A stretch of 64,000 nt of DNA, from the NCBI GenBank assembly GCA_934277645.1, contig CAKQUX010000003.1, positions 981-64,980 of the forward strand, given 5' to 3'. The translations under genes were made by a program, and so were the position numbers. The notes beneath the pieces were generated by a model. That model saw only the letters and a list, made by a program, of their open reading frames with translations. It made no database searches and had not been told where the DNA came from. Numbering within the stretch: the stretch's first letter is position 1; every line of letters starts with the position of its first letter. Origin of the DNA: an uncultured Clostridia bacterium. GTDB taxonomy: Bacteria > Bacillota > Clostridia > Christensenellales > CAG-917. Positions 4,599 to 28,535 of this stretch are shown in pieces.

Positions 4599-5087
4599 TT
4601 AAAATTTGTTGGCTGTCGGTGGCGTGGCGAGCAATGCCTTTTTCCATTGTTTGAAATCGAAGCGAACGTTTGCGGGACTTGTGGACGGAAGATAAAAACA
4701 AATTTTGTTTAACAGCGGATATGCTTTTTTGAACAACTTTTTTGCAGTTCCGCCGTTGATTAAAATTTTATTCACGTTTGCAACCTTAAAAATTTGCGTC
4801 ATGTCGCATACGGTCGGATTTTTAATGTTAGCGTCAAGAGAGCCTACAATTTCGCAACTTGTGACAACGTCCCAAAGCGCAATTTTGTGTCTTGTCAGAA
4901 AGCACTTTTTTTCTTCGACGGTTTCGCAAATCTTTTCGCCATAAATCTCGGCGAGAGTTTTCCAAAATCTATTCAATTTGTTGCCGTAATAAAAATTCTC
5001 TTCCCTTGATTTTACGCTGGGGAAGCTACCCAAAATCAAAATTTCGGAATCGGAATTTACAAACGGTTCAAAAGCGTGAATCATCAT
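4599..5087 (-). CDS. Uracil-DNA glycosylase superfamily protein, DNA-deoxyinosine (hypoxanthine-DNA) glycosylase-like
   Basis: 162 aa. ILILGSFPSVKS...NRFWKTL...ALWDVV.SCE..GSLD.NIK...LPSTSPAN matches the family-6-like UDG pattern as I remember it. Confidence 0.7.
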   Translation of the reverse strand: MMIHAFEPFVNSDSEILILGSFPSVKSREENFYYGNKLNRFWKTLAEIYGEKICETVEEKKCFLTRHKIALWDVVTSCEIVGSLDANIKNPTVCDMTQIFKVANVNKILINGGTAKKLFKKAYPLLNKICFYLPSTSPANVRFDFKQWKKALLATPPTANKF

Positions 5088-5546
5088 ATCTACATATTAG
5101 CACGTTTTTACGTTAGAATTCTACTGTTTATCGGTGCCAATATGCAGATATTTAATTTTGTGGATATAATCATTTGCCGATATAAATCGTTGCGGCTTTA
5201 ATAATATAGTTTCGATTTGACTTTTCATTTGCATTATGCTTTCGGACTAAAAATTAGTTATACCTACGCTGTGCCGCAAAACATACAATTTTTAAAGATC
5301 GGCTCGGTCGTCGGCGTTTGTATCTGTTGTTTGCCGACAGCTTTTGGCGTCTAACTTGTTTGTTTGCGTAGGTTTTATATTTCCGAGTTTGTGTTTAGCG
5401 TCAAAACAGAACGCCGCTTTTGCCGACTTGGTTTGTCGCTTTGCAGTTTCCATAATTAAAAGCCGATGTGTTTTATAATGTCAGACGGTGTATCTTGTTT
5501 GTCGACCGCGTTTGTATGGTTCGCCGATTTTCACTGGCTGTTTTTT

Positions 5547-6110
5547 TTATTTTAAAAACTTAGGTTGAAACTGCTCGCCGCGTATTGCCTTTTCAAGCGT
5601 AGGCAGAATATATTCTCTTGCCGCAATCATCGAATTAGGTTTTTGCGCAGGGTCGTCCTGACTTATCGGAACGAAGAAGAAGTTTTTCGTATTGAGCAGA
5701 AGCCCTAAATTTTTGGCATTTGCTCCGAGAGAGTCGTTTGACGAAAGCGCGATGACAACCGGTCTATCGTTTCTCAGTTGCGCTTTTACGGCGAGCGTGA
5801 CGGGAGTGTCGCTTATGCCGTGCGCAATTTTCGAAAGACTGTTTCCCGTGCAAGGGCAAACGAGAACTGCGTCAAGATTCGCCTTTGCGATAGGCTCTGC
5901 GCCTTGCAAAGTCGAAATGACTTTTTTGCCCGTGATGCGTTCGACCTCGCTTCGGAAGTCTTCCGCTTTAAAAAATCGTGTATCGAGGTCGTAAACGTTG
6001 TAACTGAAAATCGGCGTAACGTCATAGCCTGCGTCGACAAGCTCGCTAAGCGTAATAAGCGTGTTTTTTAATGTGCAAAAAGAGCCGCACACGCAAAATC
6101 CTATTTTCAT
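5547..6110 (-). CDS. dpaB: Dipicolinate synthase subunit B (SpoVFB)
   Basis: 187 aa flavoprotein-type sequence: MKIGFCVCGSFCT...VCPCTGNSLSKIAHGISDTPVTLAVKAQLRN. It shares an ATGA start/stop overlap with dpaA. Confidence 0.85.
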   Translation of the reverse strand: MKIGFCVCGSFCTLKNTLITLSELVDAGYDVTPIFSYNVYDLDTRFFKAEDFRSEVERITGKKVISTLQGAEPIAKANLDAVLVCPCTGNSLSKIAHGISDTPVTLAVKAQLRNDRPVVIALSSNDSLGANAKNLGLLLNTKNFFFVPISQDDPAQKPNSMIAAREYILPTLEKAIRGEQFQPKFLK

Positions 6111-6808
6111 AAACCCTCCCTAAAAATAAAATCGCAAATCAATTTACCTGCCGATTTCGGATAAAACTTTGCAGGCATAGCGGGATAATATTTTGCGTCG
6201 ATTCCCGAAGCGGAAAGCTCGGCAAGCGGAAGGACGTCTTTCCCCGCAAGGTCGATATAGATTGCGCCGTATTTATGCGATTTGAAATTTACGTCTGAAA
6301 GTTTTGGCGACGTGTTTACAATTACGTCATAACCGTTAAAGTCGATTTTGTCCATATCGACTATTTTGTCGGCAAACGCTCCTGCTTGTCTTACCGAGCT
6401 TGTCGCAATATCGAGCTTGCCGCCAAGAGCGGTAAAATATCTCGCAAACGCCGAGCCTATTCGACCGAAGCCTATAAGAAGAAGTTTTAAATCGTATGGA
6501 GCAAGGTCGGTCTTGCTTAGTAGGTCTATTGCCGCAAGGGCGGTCAGCTTTGCGTTTTCCATTGTGAATATCTCGTCGCTTAGCAGGCAATGCGTATCAT
6601 AACCCGACAACATTCGTTTTGTTTCGTCGTCCATTTTTCCGTAAACCAAAACAAAATCGTTGAACGCCAAAATTTTATTCCAAACGAAATTGCTGTCAAG
6701 TTTAAGGTTGGGCGGCGTAATTATGCACAATTTTTCGTTTTTTTTGTCCGCAAGCGAGGCGCGGACATAGTTCATCCTTTCGTCGTCTCCCAAAACCAAA
6801 TAGTTCAT
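6107..6808 (-). CDS. dpaA: Dipicolinate synthase subunit A (SpoVFA)
   Basis: IGFGRIGSAFARYFTALGGKL (GxGxxG) and C-terminal PAMPAKFYPKSAGKL parallel B. subtilis SpoVFA. I moved the start to MNYLVLG at 6808 (GAGGGG SD), because the longer track ORF would run into the divergent gene. Confidence 0.8.
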   Translation of the reverse strand: MNYLVLGDDERMNYVRASLADKKNEKLCIITPPNLKLDSNFVWNKILAFNDFVLVYGKMDDETKRMLSGYDTHCLLSDEIFTMENAKLTALAAIDLLSKTDLAPYDLKLLLIGFGRIGSAFARYFTALGGKLDIATSSVRQAGAFADKIVDMDKIDFNGYDVIVNTSPKLSDVNFKSHKYGAIYIDLAGKDVLPLAELSASGIDAKYYPAMPAKFYPKSAGKLICDFIFREGL

Positions 6809-6896
6809 AAATCCCCTCACACGGTATACTATGAGTTTTTCGTTAGGTTGTGACACTTGTAAACGTCCGTCACATAAAATGCAGTGGGAGGCAGTT

Positions 6897-7892
6897 ATGG
6901 AAAAAAGATTGTTTTTGGGAGCGAATACATATCTTGGTTTCAAAAGTTATTTTGAAGACAGACTAAAATATTGCGACAAGGTATATATATTGAAAGGCGG
7001 CCCCGGCACGGGCAAAAGCACCCTGATGCGGAAAGTAGCAAATGCGGCAAAGGAAAGGAACTTAGACTATGAAACGTGGTATTGCAGCGGCGACGTAAAA
7101 AGCCTTGACGGCGTTTATATAAAGAGTCTGAAAACCGCAATAGTGGACGGAACAAGTCCGCACGCGATAGAAGCGTCCTTGCCGATAGTCAAAGACAAGG
7201 TGATAGCGTTAGGCGATTTTATCGATGAAAAAAAACTTTTGCCGCACGGCGAGGAAATAGCCGCGCTTTGCAAGGAGAAGGCAAATCGTTACGTCAAGGC
7301 GTATAGGCGGCTTAATCATGCAAAGCTGTGCCTTGACGAAATGAACGCCGATTTTTCGCCGTACGTTTCGATGCCGAAAATGACGCAAATATGTTCGTCG
7401 CTTGCTTATCACGTCAGAAAAGCCACAAAAGTTACGAAACAACTTTCAAGGGCAATTTCGCCGCAAGGCATAGTGTCGTTCGACGACCATTTAAAGGACA
7501 AGCAAATCGTTTCCGTCAAAGCGGACAGCGAAGTTCAACGTGAAATTTTCTTTGACAAAATGGCGCAAATGCTCTGCGGTTACGACGCCTATATGTCACC
7601 GCTCGGTGTGGGCATAGAAGGAATGGTTGTCGGCAGATATGCGATAGTTTTTGATAGACCCGACCTCGAAGCGCAGGAGACAGTGGACCTTAACGTCGCA
7701 TTAAAAAGGTCTTTTTCTGTCAGCGAATATGCTCAAAGCGAATATGAAAGACAAATAGGGCTTGCAATAGACGAGCTTGCAAAAGCAAGAGAGAATCACG
7801 TAAAAGTCGAAGAATTTTACGTCGAAGCAATGGACTTCTCAAAAGTCGGCTATGTAACCGAAAAAATAATCAAAGAGATATTCGCCGATTAA
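6897..7892 (+). CDS. P-loop NTPase of unknown function
   Basis: Walker A is GGPGTGKST. Start MEKRLF at 6897 has GGGAGG 5 nt upstream. The gene is divergent from dpaA with only 88 bp between the starts. Confidence 0.6.
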   Translation: MEKRLFLGANTYLGFKSYFEDRLKYCDKVYILKGGPGTGKSTLMRKVANAAKERNLDYETWYCSGDVKSLDGVYIKSLKTAIVDGTSPHAIEASLPIVKDKVIALGDFIDEKKLLPHGEEIAALCKEKANRYVKAYRRLNHAKLCLDEMNADFSPYVSMPKMTQICSSLAYHVRKATKVTKQLSRAISPQGIVSFDDHLKDKQIVSVKADSEVQREIFFDKMAQMLCGYDAYMSPLGVGIEGMVVGRYAIVFDRPDLEAQETVDLNVALKRSFSVSEYAQSEYERQIGLAIDELAKARENHVKVEEFYVEAMDFSKVGYVTEKIIKEIFAD

Positions 7893-8107
7893 AAAATTTT
7901 AAGTTTGACAAAATTTGGTTTAAAGAAAGAAAACCAAACGGACATTTTGCCGTATAACGAAATAAAGCCTTTATATAAAAGTATATAAAAGGTTTGAAAG
8001 TTTGGGTTTAGAACTTGGCGGTTTGTGAGTTTAGTGAACTTAAAACGCAAAGCGGATTTGGCAATTTGATTTAATATCGCGTGATTTTAATGTCGCAAAA
8101 CACCTGC

Positions 8108-8146
8108 TTACGTTGCCTCGTAGGCAGGTGTTTTTTTATAACAAAC
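8108..8146 (+). terminator. Rho-independent terminator-like hairpin
   Basis: AACACCTGC...GCAGGTGTT stem followed by a T6 run. It lies about 215 nt after the 7892 stop. Confidence 0.5.
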
Positions 8147-8514
8147 ACTCAACAGCAAACACTCAACAACAAACGCTAAACCGTTTGTCAAACAAATAGT
8201 GAAGAGGTCGACTTTTTATGAAAAGTAAATTTAAAGATTTATATTTATTATATAGATATAGCAAATTTTTCAGGCTTCCGTGATAGGCTGCATCGGATTT
8301 TAGACTATTCATTATATAGGACGTAGTAAATTCAGGCTTTCTTATAGGGTATAGTAAAAATTTTTAGGCTTCTCGTTATAACTCGCAGGCAAGTTTTGGC
8401 TTCTGTACGCGACGAGTTTTCGTTTTGTCGTGACGTTTTATCGTTATTTTGTCATAATTCCACAAATTGTTAGGCGCATAACGTCGTGCTAAAAGGATAG
8501 TTTTTATTTTTTCA

Positions 8515-8543
8515 TTGACATTGACTTTTAACTGGGTTAAAAT
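8515..8543 (+). promoter_or_regulatory. Sigma-A-type promoter candidate for the giant lipoprotein gene
   Basis: TTGACA, a 17-nt spacer, then TAAAAT, about 75 nt upstream of the ATG at 8620. Confidence 0.45.
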
Positions 8544-8619
8544 AGATACTGTATAATAGCCTAATAGTATGTAGTAGTATGCCTTCTAAGGCGTATCTGC
8601 AAAATAAGGGGGAGAGTAT

Positions 8620-11600
8620 ATGAAAAAGCAAGCCCGGCTTATAGTATTCATAGCGGTCATCATGTTGGCGTGTTTGTTAGCGTTGACTTTGTCAGCTTGT
8701 GGTGAAGACAAACCCGATCAAGCGAAAAAAGCGTCGCACATTACGTTTGAAACGCCTGAAAACAGTTTGGCAAATCCTATTTCGACAGATGACTTCAAAT
8801 TTTCCGACGTTAAGTTGTACGTCGTTTACGATGACGGTTCAAAAGGAAAAGCCGTTACGTTTAACGAGTCGATGTTGTCGGCAAAGAACACCGGAAATAT
8901 CGACGATATTCCTGTCGGCGGCAAATCGAGAGTTATCTTTACCGCAAGTTATACCGTTGACGGAACGACTTTTGAGGGAACGTTCGGCATTTATCTCAGA
9001 AAACCTGACAACGTAGAGAAAGTTACCTATAAGTTCTACACGAACGGCGCGAACGTTGAAGATTTCGAACTTCGAATTCCTGTCGGAACGGTTTTCAAAA
9101 CTTACAAAGAGTTTTTGGAATATCTCGGTAAAAATCACGAACCTGTTGCAAAAACGAGATATACTCTTGCAGGTTGGCTCGATACGCAAGGACAAGACGT
9201 AGCCGGTATGGAAGCTGCTCAAATCGAAAGAAACTACGGCAGATATAATATGGAAAGAAACTTCGTAGAAATAGAAGTTAAAAAGGGCGTTAGCAACTAT
9301 TTCTATGCAACGTGGAGCAAAAACGTAGCCGAAGTAACCTTCAATTACAATTTCTCCCAATTCAGTATGGAAGGCGTGTCGTTTGCTCACGTAACTCCGA
9401 AAATTAACGTTAATGCCGACGGTACTGCAGAAGAAGACAGAAAAACGCGCGTCAGCAATTCTAACCCAATCGTAACCGAATATTACACGATGGGTTACGA
9501 CGTCGCTCAAAGACCTAATACATACAAAATCGACAGCTTGGGCAGTCTTGAAAAACTTCCTACCCCTCTTCAAGAAATCGTAGACGGTTACACGTTCGAG
9601 GGTTGGTATACCGACGCAAAACTTACGCAATCGTGGTCGTTCTCGGGCGTCGTTAAAGACAATATGACGCTTTACGCAAAGTGGGCAAGAAAGCAATATT
9701 CGATTACTCTTGACCTTGGCGGCGGTTTCTTCAACCCTGACTACGTTATCGTAGAAGACGGCAAGTTGAAAGAAAAAGACGACTACGGCTATTTCACTCT
9801 GCGTGGCGAAGTCGAAAGAACAAGCTCGCTTAAAGACGTAAACGACGCTACTGCAAAAGAAGTTCCGTCCGTTATCAGATATACGGGACTCAATTATAAG
9901 GCGAACGTTTTCGGCACTACGAACAAGAGCTACTATTTGCTTAAATCTCTTACGAATATGAACACTGCAACCGGCAGAGTTTATTATAAAGGTAAGGTCA
10001 GCGACAGCGTATACTATTACAACTTCGCAGGTTGGTATTATGACGCAAATTTCAATAAACCGTTTGACCTTAACAACAACTCGTTTACCGAAGACCTTTA
10101 TTTGTTCGCAAAGTGGGAACTTGTTTCCGACAGCAGTTTGCAAGCAAACTTCTATAAGGATTATTTGTTCAAGAACTGTCTCGAACTTAAACCTGACGGA
10201 ACTTACAAAATTACGGGTATAAACGATAAGACGGTTACGACGTTCAAAATTCCTGCTCAAATCGGCGGAATCTTCGTTACGGAAATCGGCGCTAACGCAT
10301 TCAGCAGTTGCTTGTCGCTTTTAAAAGTCGAAATCGAAGGCGGCGAAAGCTCTAAGCTCTCAAAAATCGGCGATAAGGCTTTTGCATTCTGCTCGAAGCT
10401 CAGCGAAATAAATAAAATTTGCGACGGAACTTCGTTTAATTACGATTTGTTTAACGTCGATTACAACAATGCTCAACAAAAGCAATTAGTTCATCTTCCT
10501 AACCTTGAAGATATCGGCGTTGACGTTTTCCAAGGTACCGAGTATTTGCAGAACAAGAGAAAGACAATGAACTTCCTTGAATATCAAGGTCGTTTGATTC
10601 AATACATCGGCGATACTACGGTTACTAATGTCGTTTCTTCGTTTGAGAAATTGCCTGACGACAATAACGGCGGCGCGGTTATCGACAGTAAAAACTATAC
10701 GCTTGACAAAACGAATCCGCTTTTGTACGTCTATACGGCGGCAGGCGAACCGACGCTTAAATACGTCTATTTCCCGAGCGGAATTACGACGATAAATCCG
10801 TATACGTTTAAGAACCTTACAAACCTTAAATCGATTGTCATTCCTAACACCGTTACGGAAATCGGTGACAGCTGTTTCAGCAAATGTTCTATCCTTTCCG
10901 ATTTTGTAATCGACGAGATAGAAGCGGGAAGCGGTGAATATAGCCTTGAAGAAATCGGACCGTCGGCTCTTGCGGATACGCTTTGGTTGTCTGGTCAATC
11001 GACGCTTGTCACAATCGGAAAGATTTTGTATTCGTTCCGTGGCGGAAACGACACCACGCAAGTTACTATTCCTGACGGAATCGAGATTATTGCAGACAAC
11101 TTGTTTATGTCGAACGATAACCTTCGCGTAGTTACATTCCAAAACGAAAGCAGAATCAAGAAGATAGGCAAAAACGCATTCAACGCAACCGCTTGGTATC
11201 GCACTATGGGCGAAAACAACAACGGCTTTGTCGTAGTCAACGGCATAATGATAGGTTACACTTTAAGACCTGCCGCCGTCGACGGAAAGGTTGTAGTAAC
11301 CGTTCCTAACACTATCAGAGAACTTGCAAGCTATGCATTCTCGAACACGAACACGATAACGCATATCAGTTTGCCAAGCTCGATTGAAAAAATCGACGCA
11401 TACGCTTTTGACGCTTGCACCAGACTTCAAACGATTTCGTTCGGACATTTGGTTCTCGCCGACGAGTCGGGTACATTGCCTAAGAACCCTGTATTGCTCG
11501 AAAAGAGCGGAAACCTTTCGGTAAAAGCGTTCTTCAACAAAGATAAAGATAATCTTGTAAGCGCGGACGTTAAATTGTATTTCACTCTCGACAGAGTTGG

Positions 11601-18764: not shown

Positions 18765-20294
18765 ATGAATAATTTTGATTTGATTGCCGGTTACGGCAGA
18801 GAAAAAGAAGAACTTAGAAAGATTTGTGACATTTTGAACAATCGTGATGTCTATTTAAGCAAAGGGGCGGCAATGCCAAAGGGAGTAATATTCTATGGCG
18901 ATTCTGGAAATGGAAAAACGCTCTTTGCCCATGTTTTAGCAAAAGAATGCGATATGCCTATTTACATTATTAGTTTAGGGGAAACAAGTAAGCGAAATGG
19001 CGTTATCAAACAAATAAAAACCGCCTTCGACAAGGCCAATAGAAGCAAACGATACAGCGTGGTTTTTATAGATGAGCTAGACAAAATTTTGCCGAAGCAG
19101 GGTCAATTGGTGGTCAGCGATGGAGCGAATGCAATTCTTACCGAACTATTGACACTAATCGACGGTATCGATAAGAATAATAATGTATTCTTCATAGCAA
19201 CTTGCAATGATTTCTATGACATTCCGGAAACGATGCTCAGACCGGGGCGCATAGACAAAAAGATAATGTTGCCTGACCCGGATTGTAAATCCAGAAAGGA
19301 AATTTTGGCAATGTATATCAAACAATCAAATTGTGCATTTGAAGCCTCCGAGGACGTGATTGCATCGTTTACGGCAGGAATGTCGTGCTCGGCGTTGAAG
19401 ACGCTTATCAATGAATGTATTTTGGAATCCGATGAAAACAATTTTGTTTCTGAAAAATTGGTTTTTAAAAAATTAAATGAAATCAATCACCAAGATATTG
19501 AAAGAGAAAGAAGTGCGATTGAGAAAATGATTTTTAGTTGTCACAATTTAGGCTATTTTATTGTAGCAAACAGTTTCGCACCGTCGTGTGGCGGAATTAT
19601 TGATATGGATTCACATAATCTTTGCAATGACTTTTTTAATGGAATTGTTGATGATGTTAATTATGATGATGACTACGATGATGACGACGAAGAAGACGAC
19701 GATGATGATGACTATGATGAAGAAGATGATTACGACGAAGACGATGCTGATTATGACGAAGAAGACGATGAATGCAATGAAGACGAATTGAAAGAAGAAA
19801 ACGACAATGAAGCCGAAGATGTCGACGATGATGACGAACAAGATGATTGGTCTGGTCAGTATTATAGTGAAACGGATTACAGGAATGCTATATGCGTTTT
19901 GTGCGGTGGAATGATAGCGGAAAAATATGTTTTGCAAAAAACATATGATGATACCGCTTGGGATTTAGATACGATTGACAACCTTCTTTTCCGTATGTCC
20001 GAAATGGGAATGCTTGGGATGGGTTTAATTTATAACGTAAGCAGACATAAAAATATGCCTTACAGTGCAGATCGAATTTTAGCCATAAACAATAAATTTG
20101 ATGAAATAATAAGTGAATGCTATGAAAAGGCTGAAAAAATCATATCGCAAAATGTGGACTTGATTAAACTGTTGCAATGCCATTTGATAGAAGAGGGAAT
20201 TATCAAGAAAGAAAGAGCGAAAGAATTGATAGACGAATTTAAAAATCAAAAAGCATTTGGTGGCAATGTTAAAGATGAAAAAGAAAGCCGATAG
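18765..20294 (+). CDS. Soluble FtsH-like AAA+ ATPase with a degenerate (HEXXH-less) M41-like domain and a poly-Asp/Glu insertion
   Basis: Walker A GDSGNGKT, Walker B VVFIDELD, SRH ATCNDFYDIPETMLRPGRID. The M41-like part has CHNLG in place of HEaGH, CGGMIAEKYV (compare lGGRaAEe), and MSEMGMLGMG (compare yGMS..lG). No TM segments. GAGGTG SD. Confidence 0.75.
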   Translation: MNNFDLIAGYGREKEELRKICDILNNRDVYLSKGAAMPKGVIFYGDSGNGKTLFAHVLAKECDMPIYIISLGETSKRNGVIKQIKTAFDKANRSKRYSVVFIDELDKILPKQGQLVVSDGANAILTELLTLIDGIDKNNNVFFIATCNDFYDIPETMLRPGRIDKKIMLPDPDCKSRKEILAMYIKQSNCAFEASEDVIASFTAGMSCSALKTLINECILESDENNFVSEKLVFKKLNEINHQDIERERSAIEKMIFSCHNLGYFIVANSFAPSCGGIIDMDSHNLCNDFFNGIVDDVNYDDDYDDDDEEDDDDDDYDEEDDYDEDDADYDEEDDECNEDELKEENDNEAEDVDDDDEQDDWSGQYYSETDYRNAICVLCGGMIAEKYVLQKTYDDTAWDLDTIDNLLFRMSEMGMLGMGLIYNVSRHKNMPYSADRILAINNKFDEIISECYEKAEKIISQNVDLIKLLQCHLIEEGIIKKERAKELIDEFKNQKAFGGNVKDEKESR

Positions 20295-20853
20295 ATTGCG
20301 GAAAAGAGATTTTAAGAAATGTGTATTTTCGACAGTTTGCGATTGCATGCATATATTCGGCTACTCGTTAATGCCTGCAATTATTGAAACGACCTTGGAT
20401 GGAAATAGACTTATGTCTTTTGTCGCCTGTGACAATAGTAGGCAGTGCGCAATAATATATGATTATCAAAAGTTTCAAAAGGCTTTTGGTGAGCGCGATA
20501 AAGAATACAATTTGATAAGCCTTACATATATTGTTGCGCATGAAATGAGACATTATTATCAGCATAGACAAATTTTCGCTAAGGTTCCTAAAGAAAGGCG
20601 AGAGGTGGTCGACGATTGGCGGAACGACACGGAGCTTAAAATATCTTGCGAAAAGCGCGAGTATTATGGAAACGTCAGGGAAATAGACGCCTTTGCATTT
20701 GCGTATAGGTATTGTGCAAATAGGGGGCGAGTCTTGGTGCGTGATGTCGGAGTGCCAAAACACTATCGCAAAGTTATGCAAGGTTATACAAAAAAGAGCT
20801 TTGGGATTACTCCTTCAATTTTTTCAAAGAAATTTGATAAATATTTTGATTAA
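20275..20853 (+). CDS. Putative zinc metallopeptidase (HExxH; ImmA/IrrE M78-like motif arrangement)
   Basis: IVAHEMRHYYQ, plus REIDAFAFAYRY about 40 aa downstream. The start overlaps the end of the AAA gene. ATGs at 20266 and 20275 are both possible, and the track start is 20257. Confidence 0.55.
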   Translation: MKKKADRLRKRDFKKCVFSTVCDCMHIFGYSLMPAIIETTLDGNRLMSFVACDNSRQCAIIYDYQKFQKAFGERDKEYNLISLTYIVAHEMRHYYQHRQIFAKVPKERREVVDDWRNDTELKISCEKREYYGNVREIDAFAFAYRYCANRGRVLVRDVGVPKHYRKVMQGYTKKSFGITPSIFSKKFDKYFD

Positions 20854-20948
20854 ACTTCAATCAATGTGTTGTTGAATTTGATAAATACTGTTGATAGATA
20901 TTGCGTATGCATATAATAATTATTGTCGCATTGACATCCAAACAGGGA

Positions 20949-20973
20949 AAGGCAGCCTTTATAGCTGCCTTTT
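20949..20973 (+). terminator. Rho-independent terminator
   Basis: AAGGCAGC-CTTTATA-GCTGCCTTTT, about 95 nt after the 20853 stop. Confidence 0.7.
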
Positions 20974-21319
20974 AATATAGCATATAGTAAGCTTATATCG
21001 CCGCAGTCGGGACTTTTTGAAGTAGAAAATAATGAGAGCGGGGTGGGCATGTTTCTTGCGCGGCAAAGCATTTGATGGGGTTAATAGCTGTATTGTTTGG
21101 GCTTTTTGTTGTGCGACAAATTTATGTCAAAGCACTATTAGAGCTGTAAAAGCAGGTGTAATTGCTTGCGAATAAATCATTATTGCGCTATTGCATCGCT
21201 CTGATTAAATTCTATCACCCGTCACACAACCACACTGCAACAGCCGTGGCTATTTAATATGCGATGCGGCAACATAGTCGGCATAATTGTTGATAAGGAA
21301 ATAGGTCTGTCTTTTTAGC

Positions 21320-22015
21320 TTATGTCGTAACTGTTAGTTTGATTTTTTTTTGCTTGTTTTGTGATTTAATTGTAGCGTGCTTCGGGGCATAATCTTTCAT
21401 TTCGGGGATAGCTCCGCCTGCGACCGCCCATAAGTATAAACTTGCGACGCTGGCATACGGCGAAAATTTTCGACGGTATTTTTCAAACAACTTTTTGTCA
21501 ATTTTTCGGTGGTGATATACCATACGAAGCCCACGCAGTATCGCCAAATCACCGTAACTAAAAATGTCGGGGCGTTCAAGGCAAAACAATAAAATCATTT
21601 CGGCGGTCCATACGCCGATACCTTTTAAAGCCGCAAGCTCTTTTATAGCTTGTTCGTCCGTCATTTTTTCGACGGATTCCAAATCGAATTCACCGCTTTC
21701 GACTTTGCTTGCAAAATCTTTTATGTATTCGGCTTTCCGAAACGTCATTCCAAACGATTGCAAATCTTCGATGCTCGCATTTGCAATGGCATGAGAATCG
21801 ACTTTGCCGAATGCCGACTGCATTCTTTGCCAAATGGTTGCTTGCGCCTTTGTAGATATCTGTTGACCGATAATACTATGCACAACGGAAGAAAACAGGT
21901 CGGTGTCTACTTCGCGATAAATTTTGCCGATAGCGTCGATGCATTCGGCAAGACGGGCATCGCGTGATTTCAGATATTCGATTTCCGTTTCGCCGTATTT
22001 GAAATAATTTGCCAT
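21320..22015 (-). CDS. HhH-GPD superfamily DNA glycosylase (DNA-3-methyladenine glycosylase II-like)
   Basis: 231 aa. LAALKGIGVWTAEMILLFCLERPDIFSYGDLAILRGL is a helix-hairpin-helix plus catalytic-Asp region, typical of AlkA-like enzymes. Confidence 0.75.
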   Translation of the reverse strand: MANYFKYGETEIEYLKSRDARLAECIDAIGKIYREVDTDLFSSVVHSIIGQQISTKAQATIWQRMQSAFGKVDSHAIANASIEDLQSFGMTFRKAEYIKDFASKVESGEFDLESVEKMTDEQAIKELAALKGIGVWTAEMILLFCLERPDIFSYGDLAILRGLRMVYHHRKIDKKLFEKYRRKFSPYASVASLYLWAVAGGAIPEMKDYAPKHATIKSQNKQKKIKLTVTT

Positions 22016-22210
22016 ATACCTATTCTCCTGTCGCTATTTTTATAAAACAATTTTTTGACATGCACAATCTATTGGCATATTTATTATATCACAATCTGCT
22101 GTCGAAGTTAATATATCACAATGAACAGAGTAGTGCTATTTATTTATATTATGAACCGGTTGTAAGAGCGAAACAGAAAATTTCATAAGAAATTTATGCA
22201 CATAATGCCT

Positions 22211-22247
22211 AAAAAGAAAAAGCAATCCTACGAATTCGCAGAATTGC
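22211..22247 (-). terminator. Rho-independent terminator of the four-gene cassette
   Basis: Minus-strand GCAATTCTGCG-AAT-TCGTAGGATTGC followed by TTTTTCTTTTT. Confidence 0.65.
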
Positions 22248-22285
22248 TTCACCTATCGGAGCATTAGTAATGTAAAACGAATTAT

Positions 22286-22672
22286 TTAACTACTGTAATC
22301 ATAAGGTATTTTGTTCTTCTTTTCACCTTTCAAGTTGATAATAAAACCGTTTTCAACTTTACACCACCAATCTTTATATTTTTCCGGCAAACTATCTCTT
22401 ATCATTTCGTCTGTAGTGTTGTTATCTTTTACCAATTCCAAATCTTCGATTTTAATTCCGCAACAAATATCATCTTCCAATTTGAATATATTCTCTTGAT
22501 TTTGCATAAAGACTTTATCATAAACTCTTTGGTCTTGAAAACATACATAGAAGCTTTCCCATCTAATATCAGCATCAATTATTGTTCCAATCATTCCTTT
22601 GGTGACGCCTTCTTCTTCTTTATAATTATCATTAATTACCCTAACGTCATCTAATAGCTTCATTTTTGCCAA
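22286..22672 (-). CDS. Small DUF4926-like protein (putative immunity/antitoxin partner), copy 2 with a C-terminal extension
   Basis: 128 aa. It shares Y-EEGV-KGM-G-I-D...VCF...EDL-V-K with the 74-aa protein at 23316-23540. Its start lies 13 nt inside the upstream gene. Confidence 0.55.
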   Translation of the reverse strand: MAKMKLLDDVRVINDNYKEEEGVTKGMIGTIIDADIRWESFYVCFQDQRVYDKVFMQNQENIFKLEDDICCGIKIEDLELVKDNNTTDEMIRDSLPEKYKDWWCKVENGFIINLKGEKKNKIPYDYSS

Positions 22673-23238
22673 CCGCCTATTGGTGTATTCATTTTCAATT
22701 TTCCATTTGGGAAAACCATATAGTTCGATTTTAGTTTATATGTTTTTCCAAGTTTTTCATTTGCGCCCGAGATATCAATCATTAAATTTATTTTGCAACC
22801 ATATTTTGTGATATTCTCTATATAATATTTACCATAAAAATATGCTTGCTTTGTTTTGTCAAATAAAACATCAATAAAAGTATTATAATCACTTTCATGG
22901 TATCCCATAGCATTAACCCAATCACTTTTACTTTTAAACAAATAGGGTATTTTTCCGTTTGGCACAATCAGCTCAATTTCTTCAAAATTTGTAGGCGCAA
23001 TAGGAATTTCTTTGCAATGACACCTAAAGTGATATAGCTTAGGTAAAAGTCCTTTTAATATGCTATCTGACAAGTTAATACCTGTTATATCAGATTTTTC
23101 CGGTTTTTTATTTTTCTCGTTTTTAAACCAGCATTTGTTTACTGCAACACATTTGATGCAATGATTTGCGGTTGTGCCTTCTATAATTCCTGTGGCATAT
23201 TCATAATCTAAACATTCGACTGAAAAGAAAATACGCAC
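22660..23238 (-). CDS. MuF-type Cys/His-knuckle protein with a conserved C-terminal ~100-aa domain, copy 2 (GTG start, N-terminally shorter)
   Basis: 192 aa. CIKCVAVNKCWF...LYHFRCHCK, with C-terminal NYMVFPNGKLKMNTPIGG. Paralogous to 23527-24096. Confidence 0.5.
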   Translation of the reverse strand: MRIFFSVECLDYEYATGIIEGTTANHCIKCVAVNKCWFKNEKNKKPEKSDITGINLSDSILKGLLPKLYHFRCHCKEIPIAPTNFEEIELIVPNGKIPYLFKSKSDWVNAMGYHESDYNTFIDVLFDKTKQAYFYGKYYIENITKYGCKINLMIDISGANEKLGKTYKLKSNYMVFPNGKLKMNTPIGGWQK

Positions 23239-23315
23239 TCTAACTTTTCATTAGGGTGCGTACAGTTCGCTTGTGGCGGAGCGTTTGCTTCACTTATTGA
23301 ACTCTTGATAGAGTT

Positions 23316-23540
23316 TTAATCACTCTCTTTAATTACTTTTAAATCTTCTTCTTTTACCGGAATTGTTGCAATATTTGGCAAGTCTAATTCTTGGTCAAAA
23401 CACACCAACCATTGACCATTAATATTTCTTGGGTCGCAAATCCATCCATCCATCCCTTTATGAACGCCTTCTTTTACATATTTTTCTTTTTCAACTATTA
23501 ATTCTACTCTATCATATTCCTTCATATTATTTATCTCCAT
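23316..23540 (-). CDS. Small DUF4926-like protein (putative immunity/antitoxin partner), copy 1
   Basis: 74 aa: EYDRVELIVEKEKYVKEGVHKGMDGWICD...WLVCFDQ...VKEEDLKVIK. Its start lies 14 nt inside the upstream gene. Confidence 0.55.
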   Translation of the reverse strand: MEINNMKEYDRVELIVEKEKYVKEGVHKGMDGWICDPRNINGQWLVCFDQELDLPNIATIPVKEEDLKVIKESD

Positions 23541-24096
23541 ACGGTGTTGTCAATATTATTTTTCCGTTAGGATATACCATCCAACCCGATTGAAAGGTTA
23601 CGTATCCTTCTTTATCTTTTCTTTTTAACTTAATTTCTATATTTATTCGTTGTCCATAATCATCTAGTCTATCCAACGCATAGTCTCCAACTGAATAAGA
23701 TAGCTTTGCTTGATTAATAAATTCTTTCTGTAAATATTGTGAGTTCATTATATCATACCCCCAAAGCGCAAACAATTGTTTTTTACTATTCCCCTTTGCA
23801 AAAATATATTTCGTGAATTTTTCAATGGGAGACTCAGCCCTTGCTGTTATTGATGGAATATCAATGGTATAACAATGGCAGTTGGGGTGTAGTGGTTTAG
23901 GTGGACATTTTTCTTTTACAAAACAACATCCGTTTAAGTTTAAACACATCGCACAGTGTTTGGAAAAACTTCCTGTCAGTGCGTTTGCGCTTTTTTCAAA
24001 ATTATTTTCGGCTGGTTTCGTTCCCTCGTGCACCCATGTCACCCAGTTAGTAGAAAATAATTTGCTTGTGTATTCGTTTGCTTTTTGTAAATTCAT
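23527..24096 (-). CDS. MuF-type Cys/His-knuckle protein with a conserved C-terminal ~100-aa domain, copy 1
   Basis: Start MNLQKANEY at 24096 (AAAGGAGA SD); the track ORF extends to 24126. CAMCLNLNGCCF...PLHPNCHCY resembles the C-terminal motif of SPP1 gp7/Mu F domains. C-terminal KFTKYIFAKG...LFALWGY...YGQRINIEI...GWMVYPNGKIILTTPYG. Confidence 0.55.
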   Translation of the reverse strand: MNLQKANEYTSKLFSTNWVTWVHEGTKPAENNFEKSANALTGSFSKHCAMCLNLNGCCFVKEKCPPKPLHPNCHCYTIDIPSITARAESPIEKFTKYIFAKGNSKKQLFALWGYDIMNSQYLQKEFINQAKLSYSVGDYALDRLDDYGQRINIEIKLKRKDKEGYVTFQSGWMVYPNGKIILTTPYGDK

Positions 24097-24454
24097 ATTA
24101 TCTCCTTTGTGAGAAGATAATATCATGGAAATTTTTGATAATAATTATTATATGACAGTAAATTTGCAAAAAATTTATAAAAAACCTAACTTGAACGGTG
24201 TTCAAATTAGGTTACGATTATGTGCGTTTGATACGCAAAAATATTCCCTTGTTTTGGAGTTGCACCAAAATTACTACTCGTCAAGAGTGGTTCAACCACA
24301 CAATACGTGTGGTTCCGTTCCGCTACGTTTCTTTTGCAATCGCTCAAAACGCTGGTTTAGCAGACTTCTTTGAAGTCCGTTCTTTTTTTTAATGGCCGTA
24401 AACGCCGAGCCATAATTACATTATATATCAATTTGCGTATTAGTCAAGCAAAAT

Positions 24455-24492
24455 AAAAAAGCAAACATCTCCGAGTGTTCGGATTTGTTTGC
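24455..24492 (-). terminator. Terminator hairpin immediately downstream of tRNA-Ser
   Basis: GCAAACA..TCCGA-GTGT-TCGGA..TGTTTGC stem, followed by T6 on the minus strand. Confidence 0.65.
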
Positions 24493-24495
24493 TCT

Positions 24496-24584
24496 TGGCG
24501 GAAGAGATGGGATTCGAACCCATGAACCCATGCGGGTTACTGCATTTCGAGTGCAGCTCGTTATGACCACTTCGATACTCTTCC
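24496..24584 (-). tRNA. tRNA-Ser (anticodon CGA), class II with a long variable arm and encoded CCA
   Basis: Minus strand reads GGAAGAG...CTGCA-CT-CGA-AA-TGCAG...ATGGG-TTCGAAT-CCCAT-CTCTTCC-G-CCA, 89 nt. Acceptor, anticodon and T arms all pair. Confidence 0.9.
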
Positions 24585-25214
24585 GTGCCAAATTATACTA
24601 ACACAAATTTAAGTATTTAGCAAGCATTATAAAATGAAAATTAGAATCAAAGCAAAAATTTTATTTGGCGAGTTGAACGGATTTAAACAAAGTCAAAATG
24701 ATTTGAATTTGATTTAATCGTACGCTAAATTGGAAGGATATAGAAATTTGAGATTGTACTAAAAAACAATGGATAAAAGCGCAATGGTTTATTTTTGGAA
24801 AGGATTTAAAATTAGGATGCCGATAAGAAACAAATTGGGCATAGCTGAATTTGAATGGTTAAATCAAAAATATATGAATTTGAAGATTGCACATTAAATA
24901 AAAATTTAAATAGTTGTTTCGTGGATTTGACACTAAGCATTTTTTACGGCAAAAGTGTGTCGGCTCAATTTGATTTAGTGACAGAATAAGAAGTTTGTAT
25001 AATTGAAGTTTTAATATAAAACGAACAGCGATTTTAACGAACGATGAAACGATTGAATTAAGAGATAAAAAGGATGTAATGATGAAGGTGAACGGGGTGA
25101 AAGTTTTCAAGTGATTGGATTTTGCGCCCAGCATATTCAAAAATTTTTAAATCAGCGATTTTTGCAATGTGTGGGTTAATTATGTGGATAGAAAATTCGA
25201 CAATTTCACGTTGC

Positions 25215-25392
25215 CGATTTTTTTAATTCACAAGTTGTTTTATAGTTATCATAGTTTAATGATTTTTAAAATCGTTGACATATAAAGGGTGCGTCTATTC
25301 TGCGGCTAAAAAAATTAACAGTTTTAAATCGTCGATTTTCAAATTTTCAAGTTGGTTTTATAGCTAACATAATTTAATAATTTTTCAAAAGC
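25215..25392. repeat. Two copies of a ~60-bp direct repeat (period 118 bp) in an ORF-free AT-rich region
   Basis: 25215-25274 (CGATTTTTTTAATTCACAAGTTGTTTTATAGTTATCATAGTTTAATGATTTTTAAAATCG) versus 25333-25392 (CGATTTTCAAATTTTCAAGTTGGTTTTATAGCTAACATAATTTAATAATTTTTCAAAAGC). Confidence 0.6.
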
Positions 25393-25745
25393 TATTGTTT
25401 ATCGCCACGCGGCATATTATAATGAATTTGTAGGTTTATTTGTGGCATTTAGCCGTTATTAAGCTGTGCGGCGAAAATGCGTTTGCAGTAAATGCTATAA
25501 ATGGCTAAGTTGTTATTTTAGGTTAAAGCATTGTGATTTAGTAAATTTGCAAGTTTAATATAGGGAATCGGGCGTCTGCTAAATTAAACCTATATTGTTT
25601 AGAAAAACGAATATTTTTTAGCAAACCGATGATATTGTTCGCACAGAAGATAGGCCGCGATAATAAAATTTCGTTTTGAAATAATCGGCTATAAAACATA
25701 GATATTGAACGATTTGTTATAGTCGTAGGAAGATAAGGAGAGTAT

Positions 25746-26045
25746 ATGGCAACCGATAAGAGTTTCAGAGATTACGTAGTAGGGCAACTAATTCCACTCG
25801 ATATAGTCACAAGACCGATGATGGGCGAATATTTAATGTATCTTGACGGAATACACTTTGGCGGAATTTACGACAACCGCGTGCTATTGAAAAAGACCAC
25901 GGCATGTGAGGAATTTGCCTTGTCGGACGCCATTCCGTATGACGGCGCAAAGCCTATGTTTGACGTGTCGGAATATATCGATGACGCAGATAAGTTTAAA
26001 GAGTTTGCCACGCTCACTGCAAAGAGTTTGCCAAAGAAAAAATAG
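25746..26045 (+). CDS. TfoX N-terminal-domain family protein
   Basis: 99 aa. FRDYVVGQL...VTRPMMGEYLMYLDGIHFGGIYDNRVLLK resembles the TfoX_N pattern. AAGGAG SD. Confidence 0.55.
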   Translation: MATDKSFRDYVVGQLIPLDIVTRPMMGEYLMYLDGIHFGGIYDNRVLLKKTTACEEFALSDAIPYDGAKPMFDVSEYIDDADKFKEFATLTAKSLPKKK

Positions 26046-26138
26046 CCGTGTTAAGGAAACGTTTAAACTTAGGCTTGTGGCTTGTAAAGAATATTTGTTT
26101 GAAAGTCGATTTGTGAAAGGCGATTTATAATTTTAACT

Positions 26139-26210
26139 AACAGAAAAGTCTTTAAATAGCGATTGCGGAAAACAGAAAAGTCTTTAAATAGCGATTGCGG
26201 AAAACAGAAA
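26139..26210. repeat. Perfect 32-bp tandem repeat, 2.25 copies
   Basis: AACAGAAAAGTCTTTAAATAGCGATTGCGGAA appears twice, followed by AACAGAAA. Confidence 0.85.
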
Positions 26211-26444
26211 TTGTGGTTTAAACTAATGATTTCGGAATTAAAGGGTTAGCCTAAAACGGCTTTTGGATAACCGAAAAGCGCTTTTTTTAAAGTGTCGGAA
26301 TATTCAAGGCAGTGTTATTAAGTAAGTGTTATTAAATAATAGAATTTGGCGAATGCTCGCATAATTAAATTTGAAGATGGTTGACGATAAAAACAAAAGG
26401 TATAAAACACAGACTTTAAGTTATTAAAGCCAAAAGGGGTAGAT

Positions 26445-27095
26445 ATGGAAATTAACGTAGTAGGAATTGCAAAAAAGAGTTTTGTTCCCGATGTTGTAGA
26501 AATAGGGTTTCGTTTTAAGCATACAGGGAAGACATACGAAGCCGTTGTAAGCGGTGGCGTAAGTTCAGTGGAAAAGTTTGCGGAATTTTTAGGCAAGTTC
26601 GGTTTCAAAAAGGACGAATTGAAAACGACGAATTTTTCCGTCCGTGAAAATCAAGTTTATGACAATAAAACCAACAAATATAAAAAAGACGGGTTTAGCT
26701 TCGAGCAAGGCATAAACCTTAAATTCGATTACGACATTGCGAGATTTGCAAAAATCATCGACGAAATTTCTACGCTCGACGCTCCGCCTGAATATAGTGT
26801 AGGTTTCAAACTCGGCGACGAAACGGCGGCAAAAAGAGCCTTATACGAAAAAGCCGTTGCCGATGCAAAAGAGCAGGCGCAAATGATAGCCAAAGCGAGC
26901 GGACTTGCTCTAAAAGAATGTAAAAGAGTGAGCGCAAATCCTTTTGGTGAAATAGGGGCGTCGGCGACGAATTTTGGAAGCGGCGCAAGTATGCTTAGGT
27001 ACGCTTCCTACCTTTCGGACGATATCGAGAATACGTTTGTGCCGTCCGATATAACGGTTGAATGTGAGCTTGGCGTTGTTTGGCAAGCTGAATAA
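26445..27095 (+). CDS. SIMPL/DUF541-family protein
   Basis: 216 aa. The N-terminal pattern (INVVGIAKKSFVPDVVEIGFRF) and the overall layout resemble SIMPL-domain proteins. No signal peptide is evident. Confidence 0.55.
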   Translation: MEINVVGIAKKSFVPDVVEIGFRFKHTGKTYEAVVSGGVSSVEKFAEFLGKFGFKKDELKTTNFSVRENQVYDNKTNKYKKDGFSFEQGINLKFDYDIARFAKIIDEISTLDAPPEYSVGFKLGDETAAKRALYEKAVADAKEQAQMIAKASGLALKECKRVSANPFGEIGASATNFGSGASMLRYASYLSDDIENTFVPSDITVECELGVVWQAE

Positions 27096-27116
27096 AACGC
27101 AAAAACCTATGAGAAA

Positions 27117-27237
27117 AAAGGTATATATAAATTAAGGTCAAGCAAAACCGCGTGAAAAAGGATTATACATAATTAAGGTCAAGCAAAAACACGTGAAAAT
27201 AGGTTTATAAACCGAATAGGGTTCAAGCAAAAAACAG
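27117..27237. repeat. Three imperfect tandem copies of a ~41-bp unit (...AATTAAGGTCAAGCAAAAMCRCGTGAAAA...)
   Basis: Read directly from the sequence; the third copy is more diverged (GGGTTCAAGCAAAAAACAG). Confidence 0.6.
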
Positions 27238-27263
27238 TTTAGCGGATAAAACAATTAAAAATA

Positions 27264-27306
27264 TAAAAAAATACGATTTTAAACAAACTTTAAAATCGTA
27301 TTTTTT
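27264..27306. terminator. Bidirectional rho-independent terminator
   Basis: A-run, ATACGATTTTAA-N8-TTAAAATCGTAT, T-run, between convergent genes. Confidence 0.75.
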
Positions 27307-27344
27307 GTTTAACGCAAATTTAAATGTAAAACTAACAATTAAAA

Positions 27345-28535
27345 CTAAATTTCAAAATGGTCTTTCAAAAGGAGTTCGGCTTTTGAAAGCGAGGCGGCGT
27401 CGATGCAACAAGAGATTTTTGTTTCGCTTGTCGTGATAGCGTAAATCTTTGTGCCGTTTTCCATAAGGAGATTCAACACTTCGACTGCAACGCCGCTCTT
27501 GTGTTCCATTCCTGCGCCTTCGATTGTAAGTTTACTGCAATTCTCGGTGGTCGAGAATTTGATTTCTTGAAGTTTCAAAAGGTCGTAGCAAAGTTTGCTG
27601 TCGCAATTTGAAAGGGTGAACGAAACCGAAACTTTTCCGTTAGTTCCGATAGATTGGCTAATCATATCGAGATTGATTTCGTTTTGAGCGATGAGGTTTA
27701 AAAGTTCGAGAAACTCGGTCTGCTCGATTTCCGAAAGGGAAACAAGACTTACACCGTCTTCGCCGCTGACAGTCGTAACGGCGTAATAGTCGCCGATAAT
27801 GCTGTTCATATCGTAAAGGCCGACTTTCTTTTCGCTCATATAGGCAGCGGCTCTGAGAGCGCCGCTGACGAAAACTTCTTTGCTTTCCGACTCGTGAGAA
27901 ATGGTAAGTTCTTCGCCGTTTCCGAAAAAGTGTACGTCGTGTTTGCCGACAACCGTGCCGCCGCGTACTGCGTGAATGCCGATTTCGTTAGGCTCGCGAC
28001 GTTTTGCTTTGTCGTGTCTGCCGTATACCGCATTAAGTTCGCGCACGCTGTTCAGTGCCTGATAAATGCTAAGGGCAGTGCCGCTAGGCGAGTCGAGTTT
28101 TTTGTTGTGGTGTGTTTCTACGATTTCGATATCGAAGTTGTCGCCCAAAAATTTGGTGGCTTCCTTTGCAAGATTGCAAAGAAGGTTTACGCCGAGCGAC
28201 ATATTGCTTGCTTTAAAGATTGCGATTTTTTTTGACGCCGCTTTAATTTCGGCAAGTTGCGCTTCGCTGTGACCCGTGGTCGCAAGAATTACGCTTGCGC
28301 GTTTTGCGATTGCGAAACTTAAAATGTCTTCGAGCGACGATGCGTTTGAAAAGTCTATGATAACGTCGCAGTTTCCGTTTGCGTCGGCAAAACTTTTAAA
28401 TACAGGGAAAGGCAAATCGTTTCCGCCGAATTTATCGACGCCGAATTCAATTTCAAAGTCGTTATTTCCAACAAGAGTTTTGTATATTGTGCGGCCGATT
28501 CTTCCGCCTGCGCCGCATATAGCAAGTTTAATCAT
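27345..28535 (-). CDS. dapB: 4-hydroxy-tetrahydrodipicolinate reductase fused to a C-terminal aspartokinase-like tandem ACT region
   Basis: 396 aa. The DapB part is MIKLAICGAGGRIGR...ETHHNKKLDSPSGTAL...HAVRGGTVVGKHDVHF (about 250 aa). The extra ~145 aa (NLDMISQS...LTIEGAGMEHKSGVAVEVLNLLMENGTKIYAITTSETKISCCI) resemble aspartokinase regulatory ACT domains. Confidence 0.8.
   Translation of the reverse strand: MIKLAICGAGGRIGRTIYKTLVGNNDFEIEFGVDKFGGNDLPFPVFKSFADANGNCDVIIDFSNASSLEDILSFAIAKRASVILATTGHSEAQLAEIKAASKKIAIFKASNMSLGVNLLCNLAKEATKFLGDNFDIEIVETHHNKKLDSPSGTALSIYQALNSVRELNAVYGRHDKAKRREPNEIGIHAVRGGTVVGKHDVHFFGNGEELTISHESESKEVFVSGALRAAAYMSEKKVGLYDMNSIIGDYYAVTTVSGEDGVSLVSLSEIEQTEFLELLNLIAQNEINLDMISQSIGTNGKVSVSFTLSNCDSKLCYDLLKLQEIKFSTTENCSKLTIEGAGMEHKSGVAVEVLNLLMENGTKIYAITTSETKISCCIDAASLSKAELLLKDHFEI

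Follow-up and report, generated by a model that had tools for sequence, protein, structure and literature searches.

Layout of the locus and its gene models

The 64,000-nt stretch of DNA analysed here (contig CAKQUX010000003.1 of an uncultured Clostridia bacterium, hereafter the window) carries on its minus strand a block of four co-oriented open reading frames (ORFs) behind a tRNA-Ser gene. The ORFs form two homologous pairs, each composed of a large gene (L) and a small gene (S), designated L1+S1 and L2+S2 (Table 1). An earlier reading of the sequence, referred to as the original prediction, had interpreted the block as a tandem duplication of a toxin-immunity-like cassette. The presence of two co-oriented homologous pairs was confirmed by BLASTP and hhalign. 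L1 and L2 share 24% identity (BLASTP, E 9e-14), and the profiles of their families align over 174 columns with a probability of 99.7% (hhalign, E 2.8e-27). S1 and S2 are related through their N-terminal ~50 residues (BLASTP, E 4e-4), and a hidden Markov model (HMM) of the S1 family retrieved S2 at E 6.5e-6 among all ORFs of the window. The related loci considered below number ~100 in all and are labelled L001 onward; 82 non-redundant loci were used for the analysis of gene pairing.

Table 1. Features of the two-pair block and its upstream region (coordinates are window positions).
Feature	Coordinates	Strand	Details
tRNA-Ser(CGA)	24584..24496	-	ARAGORN; Rfam tRNA 56.6 bits; 400 nt upstream of L1, co-oriented
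Inserted segment (leader, L1, S1, 3' flank)	23208..24493	-	1,286 bp; sister-strain blastn comparison
Terminator-like element directly after tRNA	24450..24493	-	44 nt
Promoter-like site TTGACT-16-TATAAT, near consensus	24447..24420	-	
Hairpin-rich stretch of ~230 nt, then terminator hairpin 24213..24183	24175..24447 (whole feature)	-	
Candidate extended -10 element TGATATTAT for L1-S1	24117..24125	-	read from sequence
GGAG before L1 ATG 24096	24105..24102	-	
L1	24096..23527	-	189 aa from ATG after GGAG; longest ORF from 24126; homologues also begin MNLQ
L1 N-domain, residues 1-88	23833..24096	-	homologous to C-terminal half of Phage_Mu_F
L1 Cys/His cluster H47-C75	23872..23958	-	within N-domain
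L1 C-domain, residues 92-189	23530..23823	-	DUF6883; 3 helices then 4 strands (model)
S1	23525..23316	-	69 aa; longest-ORF start 23540
Conserved 3' flank of L1/S1 cassette	23273..23315	-	ends in tRNA-Ser 3'-end-like remnant ACGCTCCGCCA (23284..23274)
Hairpin TACGCAC...GTGCGTA, then T-run	23223..23262 (hairpin 23262..23232)	-	read from sequence; 17-nt loop, unflagged by scan
L2 remnant (ΔL2), orphan toxin gene	23238 (GTG)..22660	-	5'-truncated; knuckle + toxin domain intact
S2	22663..22286	-	125 aa; longest-ORF start 22672
Intrinsic terminator closing block	22250..22219	-	

The small genes had been placed 13-14 nt inside the ends of the large genes, which proved to be an artefact of taking the longest ORF. 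The S1 ATG lies one nt past the L1 stop (TAAtATG), and the S2 ATG overlaps the L2 stop by 4 nt (ATGA), as it does in a sister strain; the proposed translational coupling within the pairs holds with these starts. We set the S1 start at 23525 because the family alignments show an invariant M-K-E start and the gene calls of relatives agree with it.

The block is AT-rich, as had been reported, with a GC content of 32.2% compared with 41.1% for the window, and the count of 17 G+C in the 60 nt from 22321 was reproduced. Low-GC patches were also seen at 42001-43000 (0.286) and 53001-54000 (0.296; window mean, 0.41), and these hold no L- or S-type genes. Outside the block, the window also encodes at 18765-20294, on the plus strand, a 509-aa AAA+/FtsH-like (Peptidase_M41) protein with a ~70-residue insert that is nearly all Asp/Glu. 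The tRNA-Ser next to the block was recovered by both ARAGORN and Rfam. A single terminator had been described; the closing terminator was found, but two more terminator-like hairpins, 24213..24183 and 23262..23232, are present in the block. In relatives, the first of these is conserved as the 5' end of the L-S cassettes. The candidate extended -10 element, which has the same arrangement in L002 and L014, probably serves L1-S1. The hairpin-rich leader upstream of it had a minimum free energy z of -3.8, and Rfam, run over 21.8-25.8 kb, reported the tRNA only, with no match for the leader; the stretch 24216-24449 matched L096 alone among the fetched loci. The stretch 24175-24447 could represent a small RNA or a leader with a regulatory role.

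Displacement at the tRNA-Ser site

The history of the block is apparent from its sister strains. The closest L2 homologue, P0241 (96% identity, 206 aa), occupies the same site in two of three sister assemblies, where the order is SIMPL, TfoX and tRNA-Ser, then the pair, then an HhH-GPD glycosylase and AAA/M41. L003 and L005 carry a full-length L2 with S2, and nothing else, at this site, and match the window at 27500..24494 and 23207..20000 with 97.4-97.8% identity (blastn). Identity to the sister strain stops at 24494, the tRNA-Ser 3' end, which forms the left junction; the insert begins exactly there (...CCGCCA followed by AGAGCAAACAAATCCGAAC). The 1,286 bp from 24493 to 23208 stand in place of 241 bp in the sisters, which hold the terminator of the tRNA, the promoter and ribosome-binding site of L2, and its first 73 nt. 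L1/S1 is a replacement insert, and the block arose by accretion and displacement rather than by local duplication. Two independent metagenome contigs, L096 and L097, have the same four-gene block, which is therefore not an assembly artefact.

Local duplication of a single cassette in tandem, with later divergence of the copies, would fit the adjacency, the shared orientation and the full-length homology of the pairs, and it was the explanation first offered. It can be given hardly any weight, given that the ~97.5%-identical sisters have L2/S2 alone at the site, that L1 and L2, with 24% identity, belong to long-separated subfamilies each spread over many genera, and that the L1/S1 DNA is 82% identical to a cassette beside a different tRNA-Ser, tRNA-Ser(TGA), in another species (L002). 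A prophage scar, left by a phage that integrated at the tRNA and then decayed, was also considered and is unlikely here, the replacement being a clean 1.29 kb with no other phage DNA.

L004 matches the window from 23207 and over the tRNA alone; it has the tRNA, the L2/S2 pair and the downstream genes in common with the other sisters, but its genes upstream of the tRNA differ: PFK, dnaX, ybaB and recR (L004, GCA_965348095.1, 1-7740) stand where the window has TfoX, SIMPL and dapB (24585-27500). This difference reflects either a rearrangement with its breakpoint at the tRNA or an assembly mis-join.

Homology to the L2 family resumes near 23225, and the first 22-24 residues of the ~206-aa family are gone, fewer than the ~40 stated before L2 was measured against its own family. 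The GTG at which the L2 remnant could start lies inside the 3' arm of the hairpin that precedes the T-run, and no Shine-Dalgarno sequence accompanies it. Compared with the sister strain, the L2 remnant shows 9 nonsynonymous and 2 synonymous differences, a ratio of nonsynonymous to synonymous change (pN/pS) of ~2, versus 0.25 for S2 and 0.24-0.39 for the neighbouring housekeeping genes, a contrast that is suggestive only since it rests on 11 substitutions (Fisher p 0.04-0.10). The truncation and this ratio agree with the earlier suggestion that the second copy is decaying.

Linkage to tRNA genes extends to the relatives. In 27 of the 57 loci with enough upstream sequence, L is preceded by a co-oriented tRNA or tmRNA whose end lies 100-610 nt away, compared with a chance expectation of ~1% if ~50 tRNA genes per ~2.5-Mb genome are assumed. 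The linked tRNAs include four Ser isoacceptors as well as Glu, Met, Val, Ile, Leu, Arg, Gly and Gln. In 12 of 31 tRNA-linked loci, the last 12-20 nt of the tRNA recur exactly, one to three more times, downstream of it, mostly before L. These copies are spaced 120-200 nt apart (for example, L002 5610-5900, L011 3108-3715 and L014 4452-4870), and each repeat unit further contains the T-arm in inverted orientation and a conserved hairpin, AAAGGTAGnCACCTACCTTT. The repeats could be attachment-site scars of serial insertions, or small RNAs that mimic the tRNA end.

The junction at the start of the insert, ...CCGCCA followed by AGAGCAAAC, comes after tRNA-end-like remnants in L096, L008 and L010, and in L096 what precedes it is such a remnant and not a tRNA gene. 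The 44-nt element at 24450..24493 has 97.7% matches in L008, in two copies, and in L010. On the other side of the insert, the 3' flank of S1 matches sequence that immediately follows the S genes in L007-L012 and L017 (blastn), and the degenerate tRNA-Ser end that follows S1, ACGCTCCGCCA, was compared with the direct repeat CGCTCTCCGCCA in L002. The route of insertion may have been either a site-specific event in trans or a homologous exchange in which the tRNA end and the body of L2 served as anchors. Integrases do not accompany the cassettes as a rule: an ORF resembling the L001 integrase occurs in just 3 of 85 loci. By loose analogy with integron cassettes, the L-S cassettes may accumulate behind tRNA genes through recombination on the tRNA 3' end, copies of which would bound them, most loci lacking a nearby integrase.

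The L and S proteins and their relatives

Both L proteins were said to carry a C-x2-C...H-x2-C-H-C knuckle. The motifs are present and conserved, with H47, C48, C51, C57, H70, C73, H74 and C75 invariant or nearly so in both L families. The assignment of the knuckle to the MuF type was borne out by several comparisons. PHROG head-morphogenesis and minor-head families were matched by 13, 11, 4 and 2 of 62 members. L1 residues 2-80 align to the last ~85 residues of a Bacillus phage head-morphogenesis protein (tblastn, E 3e-3), itself a true Phage_Mu_F protein (62.6 bits, residues 150-251 of 257). The L1-family HMM scores this Bacillus phage protein at 25 bits, aligning C-x2-C...PLHPxC(R/H)C (local hmmsearch), and in the reverse direction, phmmer with MuF queries retrieved L1 alone among the window ORFs (6e-7).

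The C-terminal domain was then identified. L1 residues 92-180 match Pfam DUF6883 (PF21814) at 27.7-27.9 bits, barely above the gathering threshold of 27 bits, which upholds an assignment that had been made with low confidence (27.7 bits against the cut-off). DUF6883 was matched by 36 of 37 L1-family members (E<=1), and the model found no match in L2 or in any of 54 L2-family members; the tie of L2 to DUF6883 runs solely via the L1 family. A 2026 preprint renames DUF6883 as the predicted RNase BECR-Tox3 and links it with a downstream DUF4926 and an N-terminal Phage_Mu_F (10.64898/2026.08.28.747851). In the AlphaFold2 (AF2) model of L1, which has a predicted local distance difference test (pLDDT) score of 92.3, the layout of the modelled C-domain, three helices and four strands, fits the 'colicin-like BECR' description of that preprint. 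NCBIfam gave no matches for the proteins of the block.

The S proteins had been called DUF4926-like. Membership of the Pfam family was not borne out: Pfam DUF4926 (PF16277) had no match at E<=1 in S1, S2, 0/31 S1-family members or 0/8 distant S proteins. Homology at a distance was recovered by profile-profile comparison, in which 102 S domains aligned with four Pfam-annotated DUF4926 immunity proteins over 61 of 66 columns (hhalign, 95.3%, E 2.1e-8); a narrower S alignment gave 77% and E 2e-5. By this comparison the S proteins are remote DUF4926 homologues. S1 is modelled as an SH3/KOW-like barrel (template modelling score, 0.6-0.7; model pLDDT, 94.0). S2 combines an N-domain like that of S1 with a C-terminal tail of ~45 aa that is nearly invariant, DWWCKVENG[FY]I[IT]NLKGE[KR]KNKIPYDY (window 22286-22420; also L095 7167-8264 and L093 5612-6409). 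The SH3-like domain of S2-type proteins is much more variable than this tail, even among three paralogues of one phage. The conservation of the tail suggests a constant role separate from toxin recognition.

A search of 1.84 billion representatives with a profile yielded 595 relatives. The ~190-aa architecture, including the N-domain, and the invariant residues are conserved across at least 400 clusters (E<=1e-10) and 80 species-level genomes, and this mini-MuF family is widespread in gut Clostridia (Christensenellaceae, Oscillospiraceae, Acutalibacteraceae and Ruminococcaceae). Some relatives are long proteins that start with an Rhs-core (DPxGL) or CdiA-like part and have an L1-type toxin domain at the end; in 5 of 5 contigs checked, the gene next to such a carrier encodes a Pfam DUF4926 protein of 58-86 aa.

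Pairing is the rule among the relatives: L is directly followed by S in 79 of the 82 non-redundant loci. Two or more S domains occur in 28 loci, fused double-S ORFs in 12 and partial L genes in 11, and arrays of 2-5 diverged immunity genes stand behind one toxin in some relatives. In many L2-type loci, an intact S2-type gene lies beside a toxin gene that is nonsense-mutated, frameshifted or reduced to a stub. Short repeats of the toxin-3'/immunity-5' junction were also seen between successive immunity genes (L001 6839-7155 and L010 4105-5326); these are footprints left as cassettes displaced one another repeatedly.

The variation of L was next compared with that of S. Among 16 close relatives of L1, four discrete types of S protein can be told apart. 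When pairs of loci with the same S type were compared with pairs of different S types (16 loci, no phylogenetic correction), L columns 97-168, in the toxin domain, differed 0.17-0.27 more often between than within S types, and the MuF domain showed no excess difference. A plain correlation of S identity with L-segment identity was discarded as confounded by shared descent; in it, the N-domain correlated best. Use of the domain on known toxin types, pairing, arrays and co-variation are classic marks of a polymorphic toxin with its cognate immunity protein, and the original toxin-immunity reading gains from the domain standing at the tips of Rhs/CdiA toxins before DUF4926 genes, from the immunity arrays and from the co-variation of toxin and immunity protein.

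Links to phages were found in two relatives. In the viral contig L095 (IMG/VR), the order is portal, an L2-type gene of 218 aa, three S2-type genes, a scaffold-like gene and a major head protein, and the L2-type gene occupies the canonical MuF slot. In L046, a locus of a metagenome-assembled genome, an L1-type pair is followed 1 kb downstream by a terminase-like gene and by a portal that is related to the L095 portal. Comparison of L095 (IMGVR_UViG_3300031555_010284, 4656-10477) with L046 (6022-11956) shows near-identical portals and a toxin module placed differently; in L046 the module is upstream of the terminase and nothing stands between portal and scaffold. A scan of IMG/VR with L1-family patterns returned no relatives. 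In the window and in most of the ~100 related loci, no adjacent phage genes were seen where this could be checked.

These observations bear on whether the L genes are inert debris, the tail of a MuF-toxin gene left by a decayed prophage and now functionless. Retention of the MuF C-terminal core only, the clear truncation of one copy and the frequency of toxin pseudogenes among relatives are in line with such an origin. Nevertheless, we regard it as very unlikely: the ~190-aa architecture and the invariant residues have been kept across the clusters and genomes mentioned above, the phage copy in the MuF slot is equally short (218 aa), which argues that the short form is native, and most S genes, S2 among them, remain intact and under constraint.

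The surroundings of the cassettes raise the main rival, an intracellular toxin-antitoxin or abortive-infection role, in which L would remain inside the cell in complex with S, the MuF-like domain would serve as a decoy or sensor for the portal or head assembly of an invading phage, and the RNase would be released on infection to kill or arrest the cell. In L001 and L002, the cassettes lie in variable islands near TIR, Fic, a restriction enzyme, DUF2357 and an integrase, that is, beside defence-type genes. Most loci are outside prophages, the operon is a coupled pair of genes without a secretion signal, and a domain resembling a phage protein is plausible as a sensor. We consider this role possible but unlikely. 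PADLOC-DB 2.0 had no match at E<=1 for any of the four proteins; immunity arrays, and immunity genes beside dead toxins, are the hallmark of toxins coming from outside the cell rather than of self-contained toxin-antitoxin pairs; exported Rhs and CdiA proteins bear the same toxin domain; and S lacks a DNA-binding domain for autoregulation.

Reading of the locus and known systems

Collectively, we read the block as a polymorphic toxin-immunity locus whose two cassettes were gained at different times, with L1 as a MuF-core/RNase-type toxin neutralised by S1, and assign this reading a probability of roughly 0.6. L1 joins the Cys/His core of phage MuF (~85 aa) to DUF6883/BECR-Tox3 (~100 aa), a predicted colicin-like RNase, and S1, made by translational coupling, most likely binds and blocks the toxin domain. 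The MuF domain belongs to a minor head protein (SPP1 gp7) and in phages attaches to the portal and takes cargo into the capsid. L2/S2 was the original occupant of the position just after tRNA-Ser, and the incoming L1/S1 replaced the L2 promoter, its ribosome-binding site and its first 22-24 codons. What is left of L2 is probably silent and subject to drift, and S2 has been kept, presumably because the full L2 toxin is still produced in the sister strains. From the immunity arrays and the use of the domain by Rhs/CdiA proteins, the toxin may act between cells, and the MuF core suggests delivery in a capsid, possibly after packaging in trans into the particles of a resident phage.

Several observations weigh against this reading. 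As regards the MuF relationship, L1 retains ~60-80 residues of MuF, the C-terminal core alone, and the Pfam Phage_Mu_F threshold was not reached, with weak matches in 4 of 37 L1-family members and a best E of 0.09. As regards the RNase, Foldseek with the whole L1 model found nothing below E 0.1 in the PDB and BFVD, although the two-domain query may have lowered its sensitivity; three family sequence profiles searched against PDB sequences gave noise only, with no solved BECR RNase; and the C-domain has no conserved His, its conserved residues being Lys, Tyr, Arg/Lys and Thr. The MuF-C BECR domain of phage Mu itself is thought to be inactive (PMC5512222). As regards delivery, genes for a portal, terminase or capsid are absent from the ±8 kb around the block, the neighbours being housekeeping genes, and no relative of the tested portal/terminase/capsid set occurs anywhere in the window; therefore capsid delivery would need a phage encoded elsewhere. 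The small number of substitutions behind the selection contrast given above counts on the same side.

The lack of a conserved His, the lack of a structural link to active RNases and the judgement of Iyer et al. on the MuF-C domain of Mu would also be expected if L were an RNA-binding or head-assembly accessory with a dead BECR domain, as proposed for Mu gp30, and S its chaperone or partner. This alternative seems improbable to us, since the domain is the variable tip of Rhs/CdiA toxins that each have their own immunity gene, since repeated inactivation of L with S kept is expected of selection against a harmful gene, and since the C-domain co-varies with S.

The toxin-immunity reading has a bolder extension, which we hold to be doubtful: mini-MuF toxins would ride in the capsids of others, with the core as a portal dock, and their cassettes would gather behind tRNA genes by tRNA-end recombination. 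Trans-loading by a chromosomal cassette is speculative. If it were true, a bacterium without a matching prophage module could load an RNase toxin into the particles of a resident or infecting phage, and the capsid-loaded toxin would be injected into neighbours or into the next host of the phage. If the core is the portal-docking part, it would provide a minimal system of ~85 aa for studying how capsids take up cargo and whether toxins can be loaded in trans by bacteria. The window and its sisters form a natural before-and-after pair, which makes predictions of who kills whom directly testable. In addition, the L2 and S subfamilies are invisible to current Pfam models, so that such loci are under-annotated.

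Compared with known systems, the locus is closest in its parts to the polymorphic MuF toxins. MuF toxins with immunity genes in temperate phages were reported by Jamet et al. in 2017 (PMC5576092), with Apk2 and Bxa as examples (PMC11699363), and MuF-BECR fusions were described in the same year by Iyer et al. (PMC5512222). MuF is viewed as a capsid-targeting domain (PMC11699363), and gp7 of SPP1 is a portal-binding protein that is carried into the procapsid (PMC6316719). Shared with these systems are the N-terminal MuF-type domain, the variable C-terminal toxin and the small immunity gene or genes directly downstream, and in the relative L095 also the position of the gene right after the portal in the head module. 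The differences lie in size and place. The described MuF toxins have a full MuF domain of several hundred residues, whereas a core of ~60-80 residues, below the Pfam threshold, is found here; and they are reported to be exclusive to (pro)phages, directly downstream of the portal, whereas the cassettes described here are ~1-kb units behind tRNA genes. The DUF6883/BECR-Tox3 systems of the preprint show the same association of DUF6883, DUF4926 and Phage_Mu_F, and L1 reaches the gathering score of DUF6883; in contrast, the L2 subfamily and the S proteins are missed by the Pfam models, and S2-type proteins add the ~45-aa tail.

The orphan modules of contact-dependent inhibition (CDI) and Rhs systems resemble the block in having a 5'-truncated toxin gene with an intact immunity gene downstream of an active pair, immunity arrays, and a conserved N-terminal part with a variable toxin part that co-varies with immunity; DUF6883 itself occurs on Rhs and CdiA proteins. 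However, CDI/Rhs toxins have thousands of residues compared with ~190 aa here, no component of a type V, VI or VII secretion system and no PT-domain is found here, the MuF core being the sole candidate for delivery with no secretion-system genes close by, and exchange in those systems is anchored on the conserved body of the giant toxin, whereas the left anchor here is the 3' end of a tRNA gene. Type II toxin-antitoxin systems with BECR-fold RNases (RelE/ParE-like) are likewise small, coupled two-gene operons of a predicted RNase and a small neutraliser. Unlike them, the toxin gene comes first here and its partner is an SH3-like barrel without a DNA-binding domain, and the immunity arrays and the ties to phage, Rhs and CdiA proteins point to attack from outside and not to addiction.

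The core of the reading, a MuF-BECR toxin with DUF4926-type immunity, is already known, and here it is miniaturised and mostly independent of prophages. The ~190-aa form with a MuF core, its life mostly outside prophages in place of the 'exclusively prophage' rule, the tRNA linkage with 3'-end repeats, the S2-type tail and the clean displacement are not described in PMC5512222, PMC5576092 or the preprint.

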